A stretch of 64,000 bases of DNA. It comes from Escherichia phage JSE. Of this stretch, positions 40,499 through 48,000 are shown piece by piece; positions within the stretch are counted from its first letter, which is position 1; each line of letters starts with the position of its first letter. The translations under genes were made by a program, and so were the position numbers. Under the pieces are notes generated by a model. It worked only from the letters and a program-made list of their open reading frames with translations. It was not told where the DNA came from and searched no databases. The DNA lies in sequence record EU863408. The stretch is one strand, 5' to 3'.

Positions 40499-40828
40499 TC
40501 AAACCAGCTTGAGATAGTTTTCGTTAACGTTTTCTTCTGTGATCTCGGTTTTAAACTCATTACCAACATCAGGAGAAACATAATAGCGTTCGGAATAATC
40601 ACGCCACATTTTCAGTAGGCTGACACCAACATTAACACCATTTTCCCAGAAACGGAAGATAATTTTATTTGCGGTGTAGCGGTAATCGCTTTGAATCAAG
40701 CTGCCATCACCGCGACGTGATTCATAAACCGTAATACATTCACGGTTAGCGGCTTTAAGACATTCTTCAATAGTGCCGCATGAGATAATTTCGGTTGAGT
40801 CGTTTACGATTTGTTCTACAGTCCACAT
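40499..40828 (-). CDS. hypothetical protein (109 aa)
   Basis: ORF with upstream PeSL. Confidence 0.45.
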   Translation of the reverse strand: MWTVEQIVNDSTEIISCGTIEECLKAANRECITVYESRRGDGSLIQSDYRYTANKIIFRFWENGVNVGVSLLKMWRDYSERYYVSPDVGNEFKTEITEENVNENYLKLV

Positions 40829-40859
40829 AATATAATCCTCTCTTTGTTTCGATGTGTGT

Positions 40860-40887
40860 ATTATACATTACCACATAAGCATGTCAA
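40860..40887 (-). promoter_or_regulatory. sigma70-like early promoter
   Basis: TTGACA, about 16 nt, TATAAT. Confidence 0.45.
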
Positions 40888-40949
40888 CACCTTTTTCATA
40901 AATTTTTAGGCAATAAAAAAGCCTCCCCGAAGGAAGGCTTTAAAATTCA

Positions 40950-41924
40950 TTACATCCCTAACAGAGCGTCAAGATCATCCAGATCAGAAGCGGAGGAAGT
41001 ACCGCCACCCAGATCCAGCGATGCCATCAGGTCATCAGCGGAAGAATCTAACGCCGTGCTAGCTGCGTTAATACCAACTACAGTGCTAGCTGCGTTAATA
41101 CCAGCATCGAATGCATTCATCTGTGCGTCAAAATCGTCAAGCTGGCTGTTAATCGCTGCCGCAGCACTGGAAGCCGCAGCACCAGCTACCATAGAAACGC
41201 CCATAGTTTTCTTAAATTTGGTTTCCAGTTCATCGAACGGTTTAAACTGGCTAGGCGCTACAATCTCACTCAGGTCAACCATGTTTTCCATCAGATATTT
41301 CTGATATGCTTCGTCTTCAATTTTCGGAAGCTGTGATTGCTGCATGAAACGAGAATCATCATAGTTCTGGTGTTTATCAACCTTCTTAGCTTTCAGGAGG
41401 AAGTTAGCACCGGAGAACACACAAGTTACATCTACCGGAACTTCGCCCATATCGGTATTCACGTTCACCATTGCAACGATCTTATCATAAATTTTCTGAC
41501 CGAAGCGGAATTTGAATACCTTACCTTCATTTTCTGGTGCTTGAGGATCTTTCAGTACCAGAATATTTGCGTAGTAAGAGGCTTTACGCTTAATCAGTTG
41601 CCATTCGGTTTTATCGGTATTGTACAGATCTTTTTCGTTAATATATTTGCACACAGGGCAAGAATCAAAATCACCGTGGGTGCTGGAGCAGTTTTCCCAA
41701 TACCATTTGCCATTAACTTTGAAGGAATGGTTTACCAGTTTCACAATCGGCAGACCGTCTTCTGTCTTAGACGGCAGGAAGCGAATCAGGGCTTCACCGT
41801 TACCTGCTGCATCAGTCTTAATCTTCCACTCTTTCGGATCTTCTTTGGAGAAACCGTTGCCACCTTTCAGTGCGGCCAGTTGAGCTTGCAGTTTGGAAGA
41901 ATCTTGGCGTTTAAACATATTCAC
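40950..41924 (-). CDS. 32: single-stranded DNA-binding protein gp32
   Basis: Similar to T4 gp32 (IRFLPSK, zinc site [24 protein letters not shown]); acidic C-terminal tail. Confidence 0.9.
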
Positions 41925-41978
41925 TATTCCTTCTTTTGATTAATTTACTAGACTATTATACAGATTTAAATTTACTTG

Positions 41979-42659
41979 TCAACTATTTGTTTCTGTTTTT
42001 AATTGAGATATTTCTTTACACTCTTTAACTACTTTAACAAATAATGCTCTTGCTTTTGCGGCGTCAATAACAAGTAGTTTCTTGTACGCCTTCATTTTAA
42101 CACTATAAGTTTGCCAAATCAAGTCTTTGGCTACCTTGTCGTGTTCGTCGATTATATTTAGAAAGCTATCTAACAACATAAACGACTCAAACGATATAAT
42201 CCGATTTTGCAGTAGTTTAAAGATACCGCTAGTTTCGGTTGCGGGATTGTATGTAATTAGCTCTTTAAGAGTAACCCCGCGTTTCTCGGAGAAGTATACC
42301 AGACTTTTAATGTCATCGTCAAATCGTGTTGCTGCATCGGTTATCTTTCCTATGTATTCCATATAAAAGCCGTATGCGTCAACATCAGTGATTTCACCTA
42401 CCCATGCATCGGTATTAGCTACCAGATTGCTTAGGAATAGGAAGTATAATTCTCTTAGATTGTACTTTTCCGCTAATTTTGCGAAATAATACTTATCTCT
42501 GCGTTTATTGAATGCGGCATCAGACAACCGCATCCTCCAATTGTATTTTACGCAATCATAACGCCCGTTCATGTGAGCTTTCATCATGCAATATAACATA
42601 TACACAGATTTAGCATTAATTCGCATATCTGGATCTGGAGGAAGACGGTTTCTGATCAT
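41979..42659 (-). CDS. 59: helicase loader gp59
   Basis: Similar to T4 gp59 (KYNWRMRLSDAA, IFKLLQ..ISFE, LLDSFLNIIDEHD). Confidence 0.85.
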   Translation of the reverse strand: MIRNRLPPDPDMRINAKSVYMLYCMMKAHMNGRYDCVKYNWRMRLSDAAFNKRRDKYYFAKLAEKYNLRELYFLFLSNLVANTDAWVGEITDVDAYGFYMEYIGKITDAATRFDDDIKSLVYFSEKRGVTLKELITYNPATETSGIFKLLQNRIISFESFMLLDSFLNIIDEHDKVAKDLIWQTYSVKMKAYKKLLVIDAAKARALFVKVVKECKEISQLKTETNS

Positions 42660-42668
42660 ACATACCCC

Positions 42669-42938
42669 TTAAATATCGAGAGTGTTGGTCGGTTCGTCGA
42701 TCACTCCCTTCCTGAGCGTTCTATTTACTATACATTCTTGTGTGATCTTGTCAATAATGGACACCGGAATATACTTCTGATAGTGACCATATTCGATAGA
42801 GTTTTCCTCTACAAACTGCGTTGTCGCTTCAAGATAAGTCAATCCCTCTTCAACAACCAGTTTTTCGATTGCAAGACCGTTTGCTGTTTTGTTCGCGGCT
42901 TTTACCGCATGTTCATTAAGCATTGAACACCCGATCAT
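42669..42938 (-). CDS. 33: late transcription co-activator gp33
   Basis: LTYLEATTQFVEENSI resembles T4 gp33; synteny. Confidence 0.7.
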   Translation of the reverse strand: MIGCSMLNEHAVKAANKTANGLAIEKLVVEEGLTYLEATTQFVEENSIEYGHYQKYIPVSIIDKITQECIVNRTLRKGVIDEPTNTLDI

Positions 42939-43191
42939 AGAGTTCTACCGCTTCGTCGCGTTCTGCTTCGAAGGTTTCGCGCTGTTGCTGGTGATACAGT
43001 TTAAACAGAATGCCCCACATTTTACCATCGACGCCTAATTCTTCTTTAGCACGCTGTTTGATCTCTTTGATCTTATCGCCGTATGCTTCTTGAATGGTTT
43101 TCTGATCGCTGGCTTCTTTAATCAGTTGTGCCAGGGTATTTCCGTGCACTGCTTCGTCAAATACTACTTTTTCTTTTTTCTGTTCAGTCAT
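42916..43191 (-). CDS. dsbA: DsbA-like double-stranded DNA-binding protein
   Basis: 91 aa; position as T4 dsbA. Confidence 0.55.
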   Translation of the reverse strand: MTEQKKEKVVFDEAVHGNTLAQLIKEASDQKTIQEAYGDKIKEIKQRAKEELGVDGKMWGILFKLYHQQQRETFEAERDEAVELYDRVFNA

Positions 43192-43195
43192 AATA

Positions 43196-43792
43196 TTAAC
43201 CCTCTTTCGTCATTAATTGAAAACCACGTTCAGCTTTTGAAATTTCGCTAGGACTTAAATCGTCACCAACATATTCTAGCATCATTTCTCGGATAATGTC
43301 AAGTGCTTTTTCATCACCTGATTTTAACTCGAACTCAAGTTCATAGTGAGCCTCTCCCATTCTTTCGCCGACTTTGCAATAATAGAAAGTGTCTTTGCAC
43401 ATTTCCACTATAGCACCCTCAAGGTCAAGTGTCAATGACTTGCGGTATGTCATTACTTGCAATAAAGGAACGATAAGGTCGGAGTTTACGCCTAGACTAT
43501 CAACATAATGATAGAAATCATCCATTGTTGAAAAAGTGATTTCTTCTCGGTTGAATAGTCCAGATTCACTATCACCTATTTTGACCATAATCAATGATCT
43601 ATTAACGTCAAGTCGAGCATAAATTCCTTTTCGACGCATTGCATGATCTTCGGTATCATAATAAAATTCGTGTTTTAGAGTGTTAGCACGATCTACTAGA
43701 TTGTACCCGTCATACATTGCTACCCACAAATCACAGATTGTTTCGACGCCAATTTGTGAGTGTGCATAGTATTTTAATTCAAGTTCTTTCAT
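43196..43792 (-). CDS. CYTH-like (triphosphate tunnel metalloenzyme) domain protein
   Basis: N-terminal ExExK (KELELK), YYDT, basic Arg cluster, C-terminal ELEFELK. Confidence 0.45.
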   Translation of the reverse strand: MKELELKYYAHSQIGVETICDLWVAMYDGYNLVDRANTLKHEFYYDTEDHAMRRKGIYARLDVNRSLIMVKIGDSESGLFNREEITFSTMDDFYHYVDSLGVNSDLIVPLLQVMTYRKSLTLDLEGAIVEMCKDTFYYCKVGERMGEAHYELEFELKSGDEKALDIIREMMLEYVGDDLSPSEISKAERGFQLMTKEG

Positions 43793-43802
43793 ATGTCAAC
43801 CC

Positions 43803-44750
43803 TTAGAACTCACCAATTTTCTGCAACATTTTAACTAACGCATTGGTTACAAAATAGTTATAAATTTTACCGCGTGGTGCTGGTTTAGATTTCTCCCATG
43901 CTAACAAAATTTCATATTCGATGTTATCAGGAATAAATTCAAAATCAATAAGTTCGCGGTTTTCGTCAAAGCGTAGTGCTTCTTCCTCTGTCATCAAAGA
44001 CTTTGGATCTTCGGCATCGAAAATTTGCTCTAACCATTTGGTTGCAATTGGTTTAGCTCGTTCCCCTTCCAGTCGTGAGATAATGAAATCACTACGGCAC
44101 TTGATAGAAGCTACACCGTCTTTTGCGTCACCCTTAACACATTTTACCATAAGGTCTTTGTAAGGGCTACCATATTTGCATTTCTTCCATGCTTTCTGTA
44201 CTGGCGCCCACTGTTTCACGTTTTTGTATTTGTGCAACTGTGTGTAGTCACCATCGCCGGAGTTGATTAGCACCTGGCGACCTTCTACAGAAAACTTTTT
44301 AGTTAACACAGCGATTATATCATCTGCTTCAACTTTGTCAACCTTAATAACGTGATAAGGCATGTTCTCTTTAAACTCTTCGGTGATCTTATTGATCGCA
44401 GCAAAGATCATCTCCCAATCACGCGGATCTGCGTCTCGTTTTTCCTTACGGTTGCGTTTATAGTAAGGGGCGATATCACGTCGCCAGTAACCTTTACTTG
44501 AATCAAAGGCAAGTACCGTAATTGGGTATTGCTCTTTGAATTTTGTCATATTATAACGCATGGTGTCAAGGATAAGATGACGAATCATGCCTTCATTAAT
44601 AGGATCTTCCGGTTTAAAGGTATGCGAGATAGTAGCAATCATAAGCTGCGACATATCAATCAAATGCACACCTTCCGGCAGTTTATCTTCTGGATCATCG
44701 AAGAAATCATTAAGTGTAGCGGTAGTTTTTGTAAACGGGTTATACGTCAT
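43803..44750 (-). CDS. rnh: RNase H (FEN-1-like 5-prime nuclease)
   Basis: Similar to T4 RNase H (GYWRRD, YHVIKVDKVEADD, SGDGDYTQLHKY, VQKAWK). Confidence 0.85.
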   Translation of the reverse strand: MTYNPFTKTTATLNDFFDDPEDKLPEGVHLIDMSQLMIATISHTFKPEDPINEGMIRHLILDTMRYNMTKFKEQYPITVLAFDSSKGYWRRDIAPYYKRNRKEKRDADPRDWEMIFAAINKITEEFKENMPYHVIKVDKVEADDIIAVLTKKFSVEGRQVLINSGDGDYTQLHKYKNVKQWAPVQKAWKKCKYGSPYKDLMVKCVKGDAKDGVASIKCRSDFIISRLEGERAKPIATKWLEQIFDAEDPKSLMTEEEALRFDENRELIDFEFIPDNIEYEILLAWEKSKPAPRGKIYNYFVTNALVKMLQKIGEF

Positions 44751-44752
44751 AA

Positions 44753-44938
44753 TTAAGTTCTCTCCACTCTCACAACAACATATTCGCCAAACGAGTTAGA
44801 TACTTCACGATCATACCCGTATTTCTCCATAACTCGCAGAATTGCATTGTTTAATTCGGCACGGAAATAATTATAATCCTTATCAGGGATTCTGTCAACT
44901 ACCCATTTTGCACCTTCTGACAAATCAACTTTAACCAT
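44753..44938 (-). CDS. hypothetical protein (61 aa)
   Basis: ORF only. Confidence 0.4.
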   Translation of the reverse strand: MVKVDLSEGAKWVVDRIPDKDYNYFRAELNNAILRVMEKYGYDREVSNSFGEYVVVRVERT

Positions 44939-44976
44939 AATATATCATCCTCTTTTGTTTCTATCAAGCCTCATTT

Positions 44977-44984
44977 TATAAATA
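44977..44984 (+). promoter_or_regulatory. T4-type late promoter motif TATAAATA upstream of gene 34
   Basis: Exact TATAAATA 29 nt before the gene 34 ATG. Confidence 0.6.
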
Positions 44985-45012
44985 TGAACATACTATAAAA
45001 GGAGACCCAATA

Positions 45013-48000
45013 ATGGCAGATTTTTCTCAACATTTCAAGGCCACATTTGGCTTTGACGCTGGTAATGAAAAGGTCGTCAATGTAGCATACGCAGATAAAA
45101 ACACATCAACGGATGCGGTCAACGTTGAATTTTTCAATTACCATAATGGTATTACTCAGTATGACACAACTCGCGGTTATGATCAATACGGAACTACAAT
45201 CTATCAAAACCGTCCGTATTATGCAAAAGAAGATATCACAAAGCCAGCAGGTGATTTTGACCCGACTAAATGGCAAGCACTGCGCACGGACCCACGTTGG
45301 GATTATATTGCAGCAACTTCCAGTGATACTCCTTTAAAGTCTGGTGATTATATCGCAGCAGATGGTCAATTTGCAAACTTGACTTTCTCTATGCCAACTA
45401 AACCAGCAGAGGGAGACACTATAACAGTAAAAGATATCGGTGGCAAGTGTGGTGTTAACGAATTATCGTTCTTGAGTTCAGGACATGAGTTTTACCATAA
45501 CGGTAATGTGTATAACCGAAAATGGTATTGCACTACCCCGTATGCAATGAACTATTTCATCTTTGTTCGGAATCGTTGGCATGTTTATCAGACGGGAACA
45601 GAGCCGCGCGGTGTATACGCACAGCCAGCGATTGATGCTATTCAAATGCAGAATGGTGATCAGGTATTTCGTCGTAGTTCGTTGGGTAATATTACCTTAG
45701 TGCTTCCTAAGTTTGCCAACAATGGCGACATGATCCAGACTACAGACCTTGACGGATTAACCGCAACCAACCACGTTACGGTTAAAGTTCATGAGCACGC
45801 AGAAGAACAATCAATTGGCACGTCCGGTCTAAAAGAGATTATCGGTAAGCGTAGCGGTCATGGTGTATTCATCTTTGACAAGACGGAAAACTTATGGCGT
45901 TTGTGGGATGGTGATCAGTCTGTTCGTCTTAAACCGATCATCGATGACACTCGCTTGCAACCTAATAGCTATGTTGCTGTATTTGGTGGTCGTGATGTTA
46001 CTCTGACGCTGCCGACCAATGTCGAGCCGGGTGATCGTATTCAAGTTTCTATGCAGTATATGCAAGGAAACCAGAATTGCCGTATTATCACCGCCACAGA
46101 GGATACAAAAATCCTTATGCAGAAAAACATGGTTCAGTTTCCTAAGCGTAGCGAGTACCCATTCAATGGGACTGATACATGGACTGGAGTGTCTGAATTG
46201 TCTTTCAACGCTGCAAATGATTATGTACCTTATCTGGAGTTCTCTTATTCAGAAGGTGATGATGGTAAGAAATACTGGTTGGTGGCACATGCTCACCCGA
46301 TTGTAGAACGAGTAGATCCGACTCGTAAAGATCGTGTTGGTGTAATTGCACTGGCTACCCAAACTGAAACGAATAAAAACCATGAAGAGAATCCTAGCGA
46401 CGAAGTTGCAGTAACACCAAAAATGCTGGCTAATAAAACCGCCAACGAAACTCGACGCGGTATTGCTCGCATTGCGACTCAAGCGGAAACGCATCAAGAT
46501 ACTGGTTCCAACTTCCTGGATGATGTTATCGTTACGCCTAAAAAGTTAAATGACTGTGTTGCTACCGAAGCCCGTCGTGGTGTGATGGAAATTGCAACCC
46601 AGCACGAAACCAATGAAGGTTTAGACGATACCCGCGCTATTACTCCTAAGAAATTAGAAGAACGTCGCGCTTCCGAAGATCTCGCTGGTATTGCTGAAAT
46701 TGTTCAGGCTGGCGGCAGTGCTGCCGCTCGACGTGGCGAAGCTGGTACAGGGATCTATAACATCAATGACCATGCTAAAATTGTTACGCCAAAAAACATC
46801 AACGAAGTCAAGGCGACCGAAACTTCCCGTGGTGTTGGCTATCTGGCAACTGACGCGGAAGTGCAAGGGGCTACAGAATCAACCCCGCAAGATGCTTTAC
46901 TCATCACGACTCGCACGCTAACGAAACGTACTGCTACCGAATCGCGCACTGGTATCGCTGAAATTGCAACTCAGGAAGAAACAAACTTAGGTCAAAGTGA
47001 TAACCATATCATCACGCCTAAAAAGTTGCATACTCGCCGCGCAACGGAAACTTTACACGGTTTAGCAGAAATTGCAACTCAGCCGGAATTTGACGCAGGT
47101 CTTGACGATGCTCGCATTTCTACCCCATTGAAGATTAAAACCTTCTTTGAGAATGCACAGCGTTTGAAAGTCGATCCGACTCAGGGGCTTAACCTTACTG
47201 GTGATTTGTGGCAAGGTATCACGATTCGCGGTTTGGATGCAACCGAAGATACAAAAGGTGTCGCTAAAGTTGCTACTACTCAGCTTACGGATGCTGGTCA
47301 AGATGATACTACAATCATCACGCCTAAAAAGCTGCAAGGCAAAAAGGCCACCGAAGGTAAAGAAGGTATTATCCGAGTTGGTACTCAAGCCGAAACCGTG
47401 GCTGGTGCACTGGCTAATGTAGCAATTTCTCCGAAGAACTTCAAATATGTTGTTCAGACAGAGGATACATGGAAAGCAACCGAAGCGCGTCGTGGTTTCT
47501 TGAAAGTTGCTACTCAGGAAAACTGTTTTGTTGGTGATAATCTGCAAGGTTCTACTCAAGAACTAGGAAACTACCAGCATGACGGAATTGCTGTTACCCC
47601 TAAAGGATTAAACTACGCACTTGCTAATTTCTTACCTAAGATGGCAACCGCTCAGAATAGTTTGAAATTGGGTAACGTAGAGGCCGCTAAATGGGCGCGT
47701 AGAGACATTGACCAGACCATAGAGAGCAATTACACGTTTAATAAAAACGTTAACGTGAAGGGCGATTTAGAGTGCTTAAAATCAGGTTCCTTTGAAACTC
47801 TGTCTGTGACTAAGAACTCAACCGACGATCCGAGTAATGGTCATCTGGTGTTGGGTGAGCGTGGAGTTGACGGTCACACCGGAATTACTCTGCATGGCAC
47901 AACCGCATCGGAAGGCATGAAAAACTCGTGGTCTATTATCGTTGGTGGTACTGGAACAGCGCAAGTTGTTGATAGTGATGCTATCGCTTTCGGTAAAATC

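Follow-up and report, generated by a model that had tools for sequence, protein, structure and literature searches.

A YgiF-related triphosphate tunnel metalloenzyme predicted to be encoded between rnh and dsbA in Escherichia phage JSE

Introduction

What kind of protein is encoded by a small gene that lies between rnh and dsbA in Escherichia phage JSE, and what might it do for the phage? The gene occupies positions 43196..43792 on the minus strand of a 64,000-nucleotide (nt) stretch of JSE DNA (sequence record EU863408), referred to here as the window. It has an ATG start and 198 codons followed by a stop. The window is a Krischvirus genome (RB49-like Straboviridae), and the counterparts of the gene in phages FL15, kaaroe, KFS-EC and RB49 are 97-99.5% identical. 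A preliminary description, made from the letters of the DNA, had proposed that the protein belongs to the CYTH domain family of triphosphate tunnel metalloenzymes (TTMs), that the gene is an insertion relative to phage T4, and that it might make or destroy a nucleotide second messenger or hydrolyze triphosphates. We estimate a probability of about 75% that the protein is a stand-alone, catalytically competent TTM related to the N-terminal domain of Escherichia coli YgiF, and that it acts as a phosphohydrolase and not as a cyclase.

The CYTH domain call itself is not new, having been public since 2003-2006. The gene is the orthologue of RB49p245, also named RB49ORF244c. The RefSeq note for the RB49 protein (NP_891816.1) reads 'similar to P45267, P30871, HI1598, ygiF', and 'RB49ORF244c CYTH domain 0.0026' appears in Table 3 of Nolan et al. 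2006 (PMC1524935). The two proteins are 98% identical, do not differ in substance, and are encoded in the same slot between rnh and dsbA. Both belong to PHROG 14893, which matches the JSE protein over its full length (E = 4e-132) and is still annotated 'unknown function'. Other public labels are inconsistent. Most are hypothetical, and some read 'adenylate cyclase' or 'inorganic triphosphatase' (MK573636 from PHB13, OR352938 from AV108, OR525698 from KMB43, and MN709127 and MN894885 from the Makalu phages). The 'adenylate cyclase' label conflicts with the published sequence determinants of class IV adenylate cyclases. In the literature we found no functional study of the protein, no characterized phage CYTH or TTM protein or Krischvirus triphosphatase beyond the 2006 Pfam table, and no link between a phage CYTH protein and defense or anti-defense. 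What is new here is that the cyclase reading is excluded, that a variant YxRxD motif is recognized and that the alleles have a cassette-like structure; these findings do not yet reveal the biological role.

Phage small-molecule phosphohydrolases have repeatedly proved to be tools with which host metabolism is rewired or nucleotide-based immunity is disarmed. A defined substrate for the phage CYTH enzyme would add a new entry to these tools, and would also correct the inconsistent annotations. As it stands we have a known domain in a known place, and its significance would be greater if the substrate were an organic triphosphate with a part in infection or immunity.

Fold and family membership

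The Pfam CYTH profile (PF01928) matches residues 41-190 of the protein with a score of 24.9 bits (E = 2e-5), a narrow margin over the gathering score of 23.2, and precomputed matches to the same profile are found on most members of the phage family in the protein database. When a profile of 20 family members was compared with the sequences in the PDB there was a single match, to E. coli YgiF. The alignment runs from end to end, placing residues 3-195 on chain positions 6-201.

The structure predicted by AlphaFold2 (predicted local distance difference test, pLDDT, 90.9; predicted template modeling score, pTM, 0.83) comprises eight long strands and a C-terminal helix. The strands form a closed antiparallel β-tunnel, with the helix as a plug. 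The tunnel superposes on that of YgiF bound to tripolyphosphate and Mg2+, which is the top match found by Foldseek (E = 4.9e-13, template modeling (TM) score 0.79, 24% identity). This is followed by plant TTM3-type enzymes, Bacillus CYTH proteins, SaTTM, thiamine triphosphatases (ThTPases) and class IV cyclases. The acidic and basic residues of the tunnel are invariant across the phage family. The profile search and the structure prediction by which the preliminary description had proposed to check its CYTH/TTM assignment both uphold it.

An exhaustive HMMER search of 1.84 billion representative proteins returned 209 matches at E ≤ 1e-3, of which just six reached E ≤ 1e-10. Judged from these sequences the phage family forms a small isolated clade, its next relatives being YgiF-like CYTH and CYTH-CHAD proteins. 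No NCBIfam profile matches the protein even at E ≤ 10, and it follows that it is not an equivalog of any curated enzyme. The defense and counter-defense profiles of PADLOC-DB likewise gave no match at E ≤ 10.

Active site

Residues were mapped in a 96-sequence MAFFT alignment that included 88 outgroup proteins, anchored on a conserved glycine four residues upstream of R60, and invariance was counted over 20 members of the phage family. In YgiF, E160 completes metal site 1, while E4, E6 and E162 make metal site 2, whose role is to activate the attacking water; the catalytic residue is R56, and K69 binds the substrate (Martinez 2015, PMC4641920). The corresponding residues of the phage protein are E153, E3, E5, E155, R60 and K71, and all six are invariant in the family. 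K7, R82, E84, R117, E130, D134, E151, K186 and R189 are similarly conserved, and the DxY motif that positions the β-water is represented by E42-F-Y44.

The open reading frame (ORF) begins MKELELK, as had been noted, and this contains the ExExK motif (E3-x-E5-x-K7) in strand β1 (codons 3-7; 43772..43786, minus strand). The motif is invariant in the phage family (20/20) and present in 87/88 outgroup proteins. E3 and E5 correspond to the metal site 2 ligands E4 and E6 of YgiF. The sequence YYDT pointed out in the preliminary description is found at residues 44-47. The arginine cluster said to follow it, R53-R54-K55, is not conserved; the conserved functional arginine is R60, lying in the sequence Y-A-R-L-D (codons 58-62; 43607..43621, minus strand). 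R60 corresponds to the catalytic R56 of YgiF, and its column is arginine in 86 of the 88 outgroup proteins. Pairwise HMMER alignments had suggested that Y58 replaces this catalytic arginine. We rejected this, as the 96-sequence alignment places R60 on R56 and D62 on R58 of YgiF.

The acidic motif E-L-E-F-E-L-K is located in strand β8 (codons 151-157; 43322..43342, minus strand), and carries E153 as the metal-1 glutamate and E155 as the metal-2 glutamate (YgiF E160 and E162). Both columns are glutamate in all 88 outgroup proteins. This motif had been taken to end the protein, and its presence is confirmed; it is followed by 41 further residues that form the plug helix. The helix sequence SKAERGFQLMT (codons 185-195; 43208..43240, minus strand), helical over residues 186-195 in the model, includes K186 and R189, equivalent to YgiF K191 and R194. 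The K186 column is lysine in 88/88 outgroup proteins and the R189 column is arginine in 77/88.

The Y-A-R-L-D sequence departs from the relatives at two positions. Y58 occupies the position of the stacking tryptophan of ThTPases, in a column that is alanine, serine or glycine in 75/88 outgroup proteins, and D62 occupies the position of the second arginine of the R-x-R motif (R58 in YgiF), which is retained in 85/88 outgroup proteins and is aspartate or asparagine throughout the phage family. The motif G[IV]YAR[LIV]D is present in 39 of 45 family proteins; in P0044 and P0045, the relatives furthest removed, Y58 is replaced by valine or isoleucine. Further positions that are conserved in the family and unlike YgiF-like proteins are Y9, K40, F80, C132, F136, Y138 and H149, all of which should face the tunnel by strand parity. 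They may cluster at one tunnel mouth.

Comparison with known TTMs

Class IV adenylate cyclases carry an HF motif four residues before ExExK (HFxxxxExExK), a small neutral residue in place of the first arginine of the xRxR motif, and ExA in place of ExE (Vogt 2021, PMC8233210). The HF motif is absent from the phage protein, where only M-K precedes an ExExK motif that starts at residue 3. R60 is retained and invariant, and the E153-x-E155 pair is present, with E155 invariant. Because all three published determinants fail, the phage protein is predicted to be a hydrolase-type TTM rather than a cyclase, and the GenBank labels that call it an 'adenylate cyclase' appear to be wrong. The same three features separate it from the structurally characterized cyclases CyaB and YpAC-IV (PDB 2FJT and 3N0Y). 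Of the bacterial TTMs, the cyclases resemble it least in structure, with TM scores of 0.46-0.52 and 13-14% identity in Foldseek. Of the two activities suggested in the preliminary description, the sequence speaks for triphosphate hydrolysis and against synthesis of a second messenger by a CyaB-type enzyme.

ThTPases have the motif W/Y-x-R-x-R, in which the aromatic side chain stacks on the thiazolium ring; an aromatic residue is found in one other CYTH cluster only, and all the rest have a small residue (Vogt 2021, PMC8233210). The phage protein combines an aromatic residue (Y58) and the first arginine (R60) with aspartate (D62) in place of the second arginine, which in ThTPase contacts the β and γ phosphates of thiamine triphosphate. 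Its identity to the mammalian 25-kDa ThTPase (PDB 3BHD and 5A64) is only 14-17%. Moreover, ThTPases form a metazoan cluster, whereas the sequences of the phage family group with YgiF-like proteins. The latter are its nearest relatives among the 1.84 billion representatives, with ThTPase appearing at E ~ 2e-3 over part of the profile only.

YgiF is a CYTH-CHAD inorganic triphosphatase (PDB 5A60 and 5A61), and the phage protein differs from it in several ways. It lacks the linker and the polyphosphate-binding CHAD domain; there is no Pfam match to CHAD in its 198 residues, which end three residues past the plug helix. The clamp on strand β3, [ASG]-x-R-x-R in the YgiF type (sequence similarity network cluster 1 of Vogt 2021), is Y58-A-R60-L-D62 in the phage protein, so that G54 of YgiF is replaced by Y58 and R58 by D62. 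At further tunnel positions L36 is replaced by K40, H79 by F80, G145 by F136, V147 by Y138 and I156 by H149.

Distribution and apparent dispensability

The gene is found in 57 phage records, and an adjacent dsbA in exactly the same 57, and it is therefore universal in Krischvirus, a genus now in wide use in collections for phage therapy. No homologue was detectable by tblastn in other cultured phages. Metagenomic homologues with 48-34% identity lie in the same slot, beside DsbA proteins that are 70-82% identical to that of the window (T4 DsbA: 58%). Since such distant homologues share the slot, the sequences point to a single acquisition in a Krischvirus-related clade, with retention in position. 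A search of IMG/VR yielded only two loci of the family, with P0044 and P0045 unrepresented.

In one isolate, vB_EcoM_G2494 (MK327935.1, locus L014, positions 601-1196), a deletion of one nt at codon 59, outside any homopolymer run, divides the gene into ORFs of 66 and 130 amino acids. Unless this is a sequencing error, the gene is apparently dispensable in culture.

A probably swapped core cassette

Codons 10-149 (420 nt; 43346..43765, minus strand) form a variable core cassette, of which there are at least three deeply divergent types in near-identical Krischvirus backbones. In the metagenomic Krischvirus contigs L002 and L004 and the GenBank phage Skers (L010) the rnh, dsbA, gp33, gp59 and gp32 proteins are 97-100% identical to those of the window, and the CYTH proteins are 56-58% identical. 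The boundaries are sharp in all three allele types. Identity in 30-nt bins falls from about 29/30 to about 15/30 right after codon 9 (following MKELELKYY), and precisely at codon 150 (Y-ELEFELK) it is back at about 29/30. The DNA that borders the variable segment on either side thus encodes the two catalytic glutamate motifs.

Protein identity between allele types is 39-42% in the core and 98-100% in the C-terminal third. The divergence of the cores equals that between the core of the window and the core of a phage with only ~80% identity in the backbone. Synonymous sites in the core are saturated, with a proportion of synonymous differences (pS) of ~0.76, compared with synonymous divergence (dS) of 0.07-0.2 in the flanks. 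An intermediate, ECD7-type allele has dS of 0.45 in the core against 0.07. The 3' third of the gene (codons 150-198; 43199..43345, minus strand) travels with the backbone, its dS of 0.0-0.2 being that of dsbA and rnh.

Within the core, tunnel-facing positions are more conserved than outward-facing positions (p = 1e-5). The ratio of nonsynonymous to synonymous divergence (dN/dS) is 0.27-0.40 for the core overall, 0.04-0.15 for tunnel-facing codons and 0.32-0.68 for helices and loops, and never exceeds 1. The simplest reading of these sequences is that homologous recombination at the conserved ends, which encode the motifs, has exchanged old allelic lineages that each keep the same active site. 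We considered in-place hypermutation or another diversity-generating mechanism, and rejected it because saturation extends to synonymous sites and recombination junctions mark the boundaries exactly. With dN/dS of 0.08-0.68 in all non-tunnel classes, there is no support for pervasive positive selection on the exterior. Nor is any special nucleotide-level constraint (an embedded RNA or promoter) needed to explain the 3' third, where dS equals that of dsbA and rnh, despite the presence there of a promoter-like site and the ribosome-binding site of dsbA. The polymorphism might be kept by balancing selection, for example through host recognition of the surface. The apparent loss of the gene in the laboratory, together with swapped alleles that maintain a constant active site, makes knockout and allele-swap experiments practical.

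The homing endonucleases near gp32-gp59 (40499-42659) differ between related phages. In RB49 a 485-amino acid endonuclease follows gene 32, in Skers an HNH endonuclease lies between genes 59 and 32, T4 carries SegG, and none is present in the window. Local homing endonucleases could promote gene conversion and mosaicism nearby.

Proposed function and alternatives

Homology and the conservation of every catalytic residue provide good support for a chemistry of two-metal hydrolysis, in which the terminal phosphate would be removed from a triphosphate. If the mechanism is that solved for YgiF, AtTTM3, ThTPase and SaTTM, the complex of triphosphate and metal would be bound in the center of the closed β-tunnel, with its phosphates held by K7, K71, R82, R117, K186 and R189. 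E153 would complete metal site 1, R60 would activate the bridge between the β and γ phosphates, and E42-x-Y44 would position the β-water. Release of inorganic phosphate from tripolyphosphate (PPPi) and/or nucleoside triphosphates in vitro, dependent on Mg or Mn, would be expected.

As to the substrate, the sequence leans towards a triphosphate with an organic tail rather than bare PPPi. This is suggested by the Y58-x-R60-x-D62 motif, with an aromatic residue at the stacking position of ThTPase and the loss of one clamp arginine, together with Y9, F80, F136, Y138 and H149. Nucleoside triphosphates, thiamine triphosphate and 5'-triphosphorylated RNA may be named as speculative candidates.

Several observations weigh against a catalytically competent phosphohydrolase. 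The Pfam score barely clears its threshold and there is no NCBIfam match whatsoever. The tunnel-facing assignments derive from strand parity anchored on known catalytic residues, not from coordinates. Aspartate at position 62 could weaken the binding of triphosphate, and the gene can apparently be lost in culture, as seen in G2494. Lastly, in E. coli YgiF adds only marginally to tripolyphosphatase (PPPase) activity, for the bulk of which inorganic pyrophosphatase is responsible, and the cells contain no detectable PPPi (Kohn 2012, PMC3440374). Given so efficient a host enzyme and so little substrate, a pure PPPase role would seem redundant. Concerning D62, mutation of the equivalent arginine in AtTTM3 barely affected PPPase activity (PMC4641920).

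That last result can also be read in favor of a strictly PPPi-specific, YgiF-like PPPase in which the motif changes are without functional effect, its substrate arising for example from dNTP (deoxynucleoside triphosphate) triphosphohydrolases or from polyphosphate turnover. YgiF is the closest relative in both sequence and structure, and nearly all the stand-alone CYTH proteins of bacteria and archaea that have been assayed prefer PPPi. Nevertheless, the benefit to a coliphage is unclear where the contribution of YgiF is marginal, inorganic pyrophosphatase does most of the work and PPPi is not detectable. In addition, the phage protein has Y58 where PPPases have alanine, serine or glycine, has aspartate or asparagine where they have arginine at position 62, and lacks the CHAD domain that accompanies YgiF. 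We regard strict PPPi specificity as possible though rather doubtful. We are more skeptical still of a specific role in infection, in which the protein would be not a housekeeping PPPase but a phage-specific hydrolase with a re-tooled tunnel, destroying an organic triphosphate important in infection; recognition or inhibition of the protein by a host factor would then be the reason why cassette exchange keeps its surface polymorphic. Speculative targets for such an enzyme would be thiamine triphosphate and adenosine thiamine triphosphate, which E. coli makes in starvation, an immune or stress nucleotide that bears a triphosphate, or the 5'-triphosphate ends of RNA.

RNA ends might alternatively be the dedicated substrate. 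A 5'-triphosphatase could act on the pppApC-initiated Okazaki primers removed by the neighboring RNase H, or on host or phage transcripts so as to commit them to 5'-end-dependent decay. There is no Pfam match to the Cet1-like mRNA_triPase family (PF02940), and the protein is much nearer to small-molecule TTMs in which a plug helix closes one tunnel mouth. To our knowledge no bacterial CYTH protein acts on RNA ends. Adjacency of genes is weak evidence of function in T4-like genomes, and we consider this activity improbable. It is equally hard to credit that the protein is a catalytically dead binder, acting as a sponge for triphosphate molecules or as a protein-protein module with a functional variable surface. 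The Mediator subunits Med18 and Med20 show that the fold can lose catalysis, one clamp arginine is replaced by aspartate, and the exterior varies strongly between alleles (~40% identity). Yet in alleles that have reached saturation at synonymous sites, all the metal ligands, the catalytic arginine and the residues that position the water are unchanged. If catalysis were not under selection this would be difficult to account for, and the dN/dS of the tunnel-facing codons points the same way. Least credible of all is the activity under which several GenBank records list the protein, a class IV (CyaB-type) adenylate or nucleotidyl cyclase making a cyclic nucleotide to manipulate the host. Both the sequence determinants and the structural comparison described above speak against this, and we give it almost no weight.

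Neighborhood and expression

The gene is tightly packed. Directly upstream is rnh (43803..44750, minus strand), encoding an RNase H/5'-3' exonuclease with Pfam RNaseH_C and 5_3_exonuc_N domains, and there are 10 nt between its stop codon and the ATG of the CYTH gene. Directly downstream, after a gap of 4 nt, is dsbA (42916..43191, minus strand), encoding the double-stranded DNA-binding protein of late transcription (Pfam Phage_DsbA). The junction sequence places the ribosome-binding site of dsbA (AAAGAGGGT) within the last codons of the CYTH gene. In T4 dsbA and rnh are neighbors with an 8-nt gap and no gene between them, so the preliminary description was right to regard the CYTH gene as additional. 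Beyond dsbA, gp33, gp59 and gp32 lie on the same strand.

A promoter scan found a perfect (12/12) σ70-type match, TTGACA-17-TATAAT, upstream of rnh (44870..44898, minus strand), and this is a candidate early promoter for a transcription unit comprising rnh, the CYTH gene and dsbA. The CYTH gene is probably co-transcribed with rnh and dsbA, within the cluster of early replication and late-transcription genes. Given this perfect match and the tight packing, it is probably expressed early. On the minus strand of 42600-45100 there are 18 σ70-type promoter-like sites, compared with 7.7 ± 2.3 in shuffled sequences. These include a second perfect 12/12 match inside rnh (44341-44314). An 11/12 σ70-like site with an extended -10 element (43302-43273) lies in the 3' third of the CYTH gene, about 75 nt before dsbA.

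Three other features of the neighborhood were observed. Between rnh and gene 34 there is an ORF of 61 amino acids (44753-44938, minus strand) belonging to PHROG 3594, of unknown function; in T4 no ORF is annotated in the corresponding 104-nt spacer. A near-duplicated peptide, GINAAST...GINAAST, lies in the acidic C-terminal tail of gp32 (40950-41924, minus strand), and Tandem Repeats Finder reported no DNA tandem repeat under it. Finally, the gp59 ORF (41979-42659, minus strand) has 226 amino acids in the window and in metagenomic contigs, compared with 215 annotated in RB49, a difference that probably reflects the choice of start codon in annotation.
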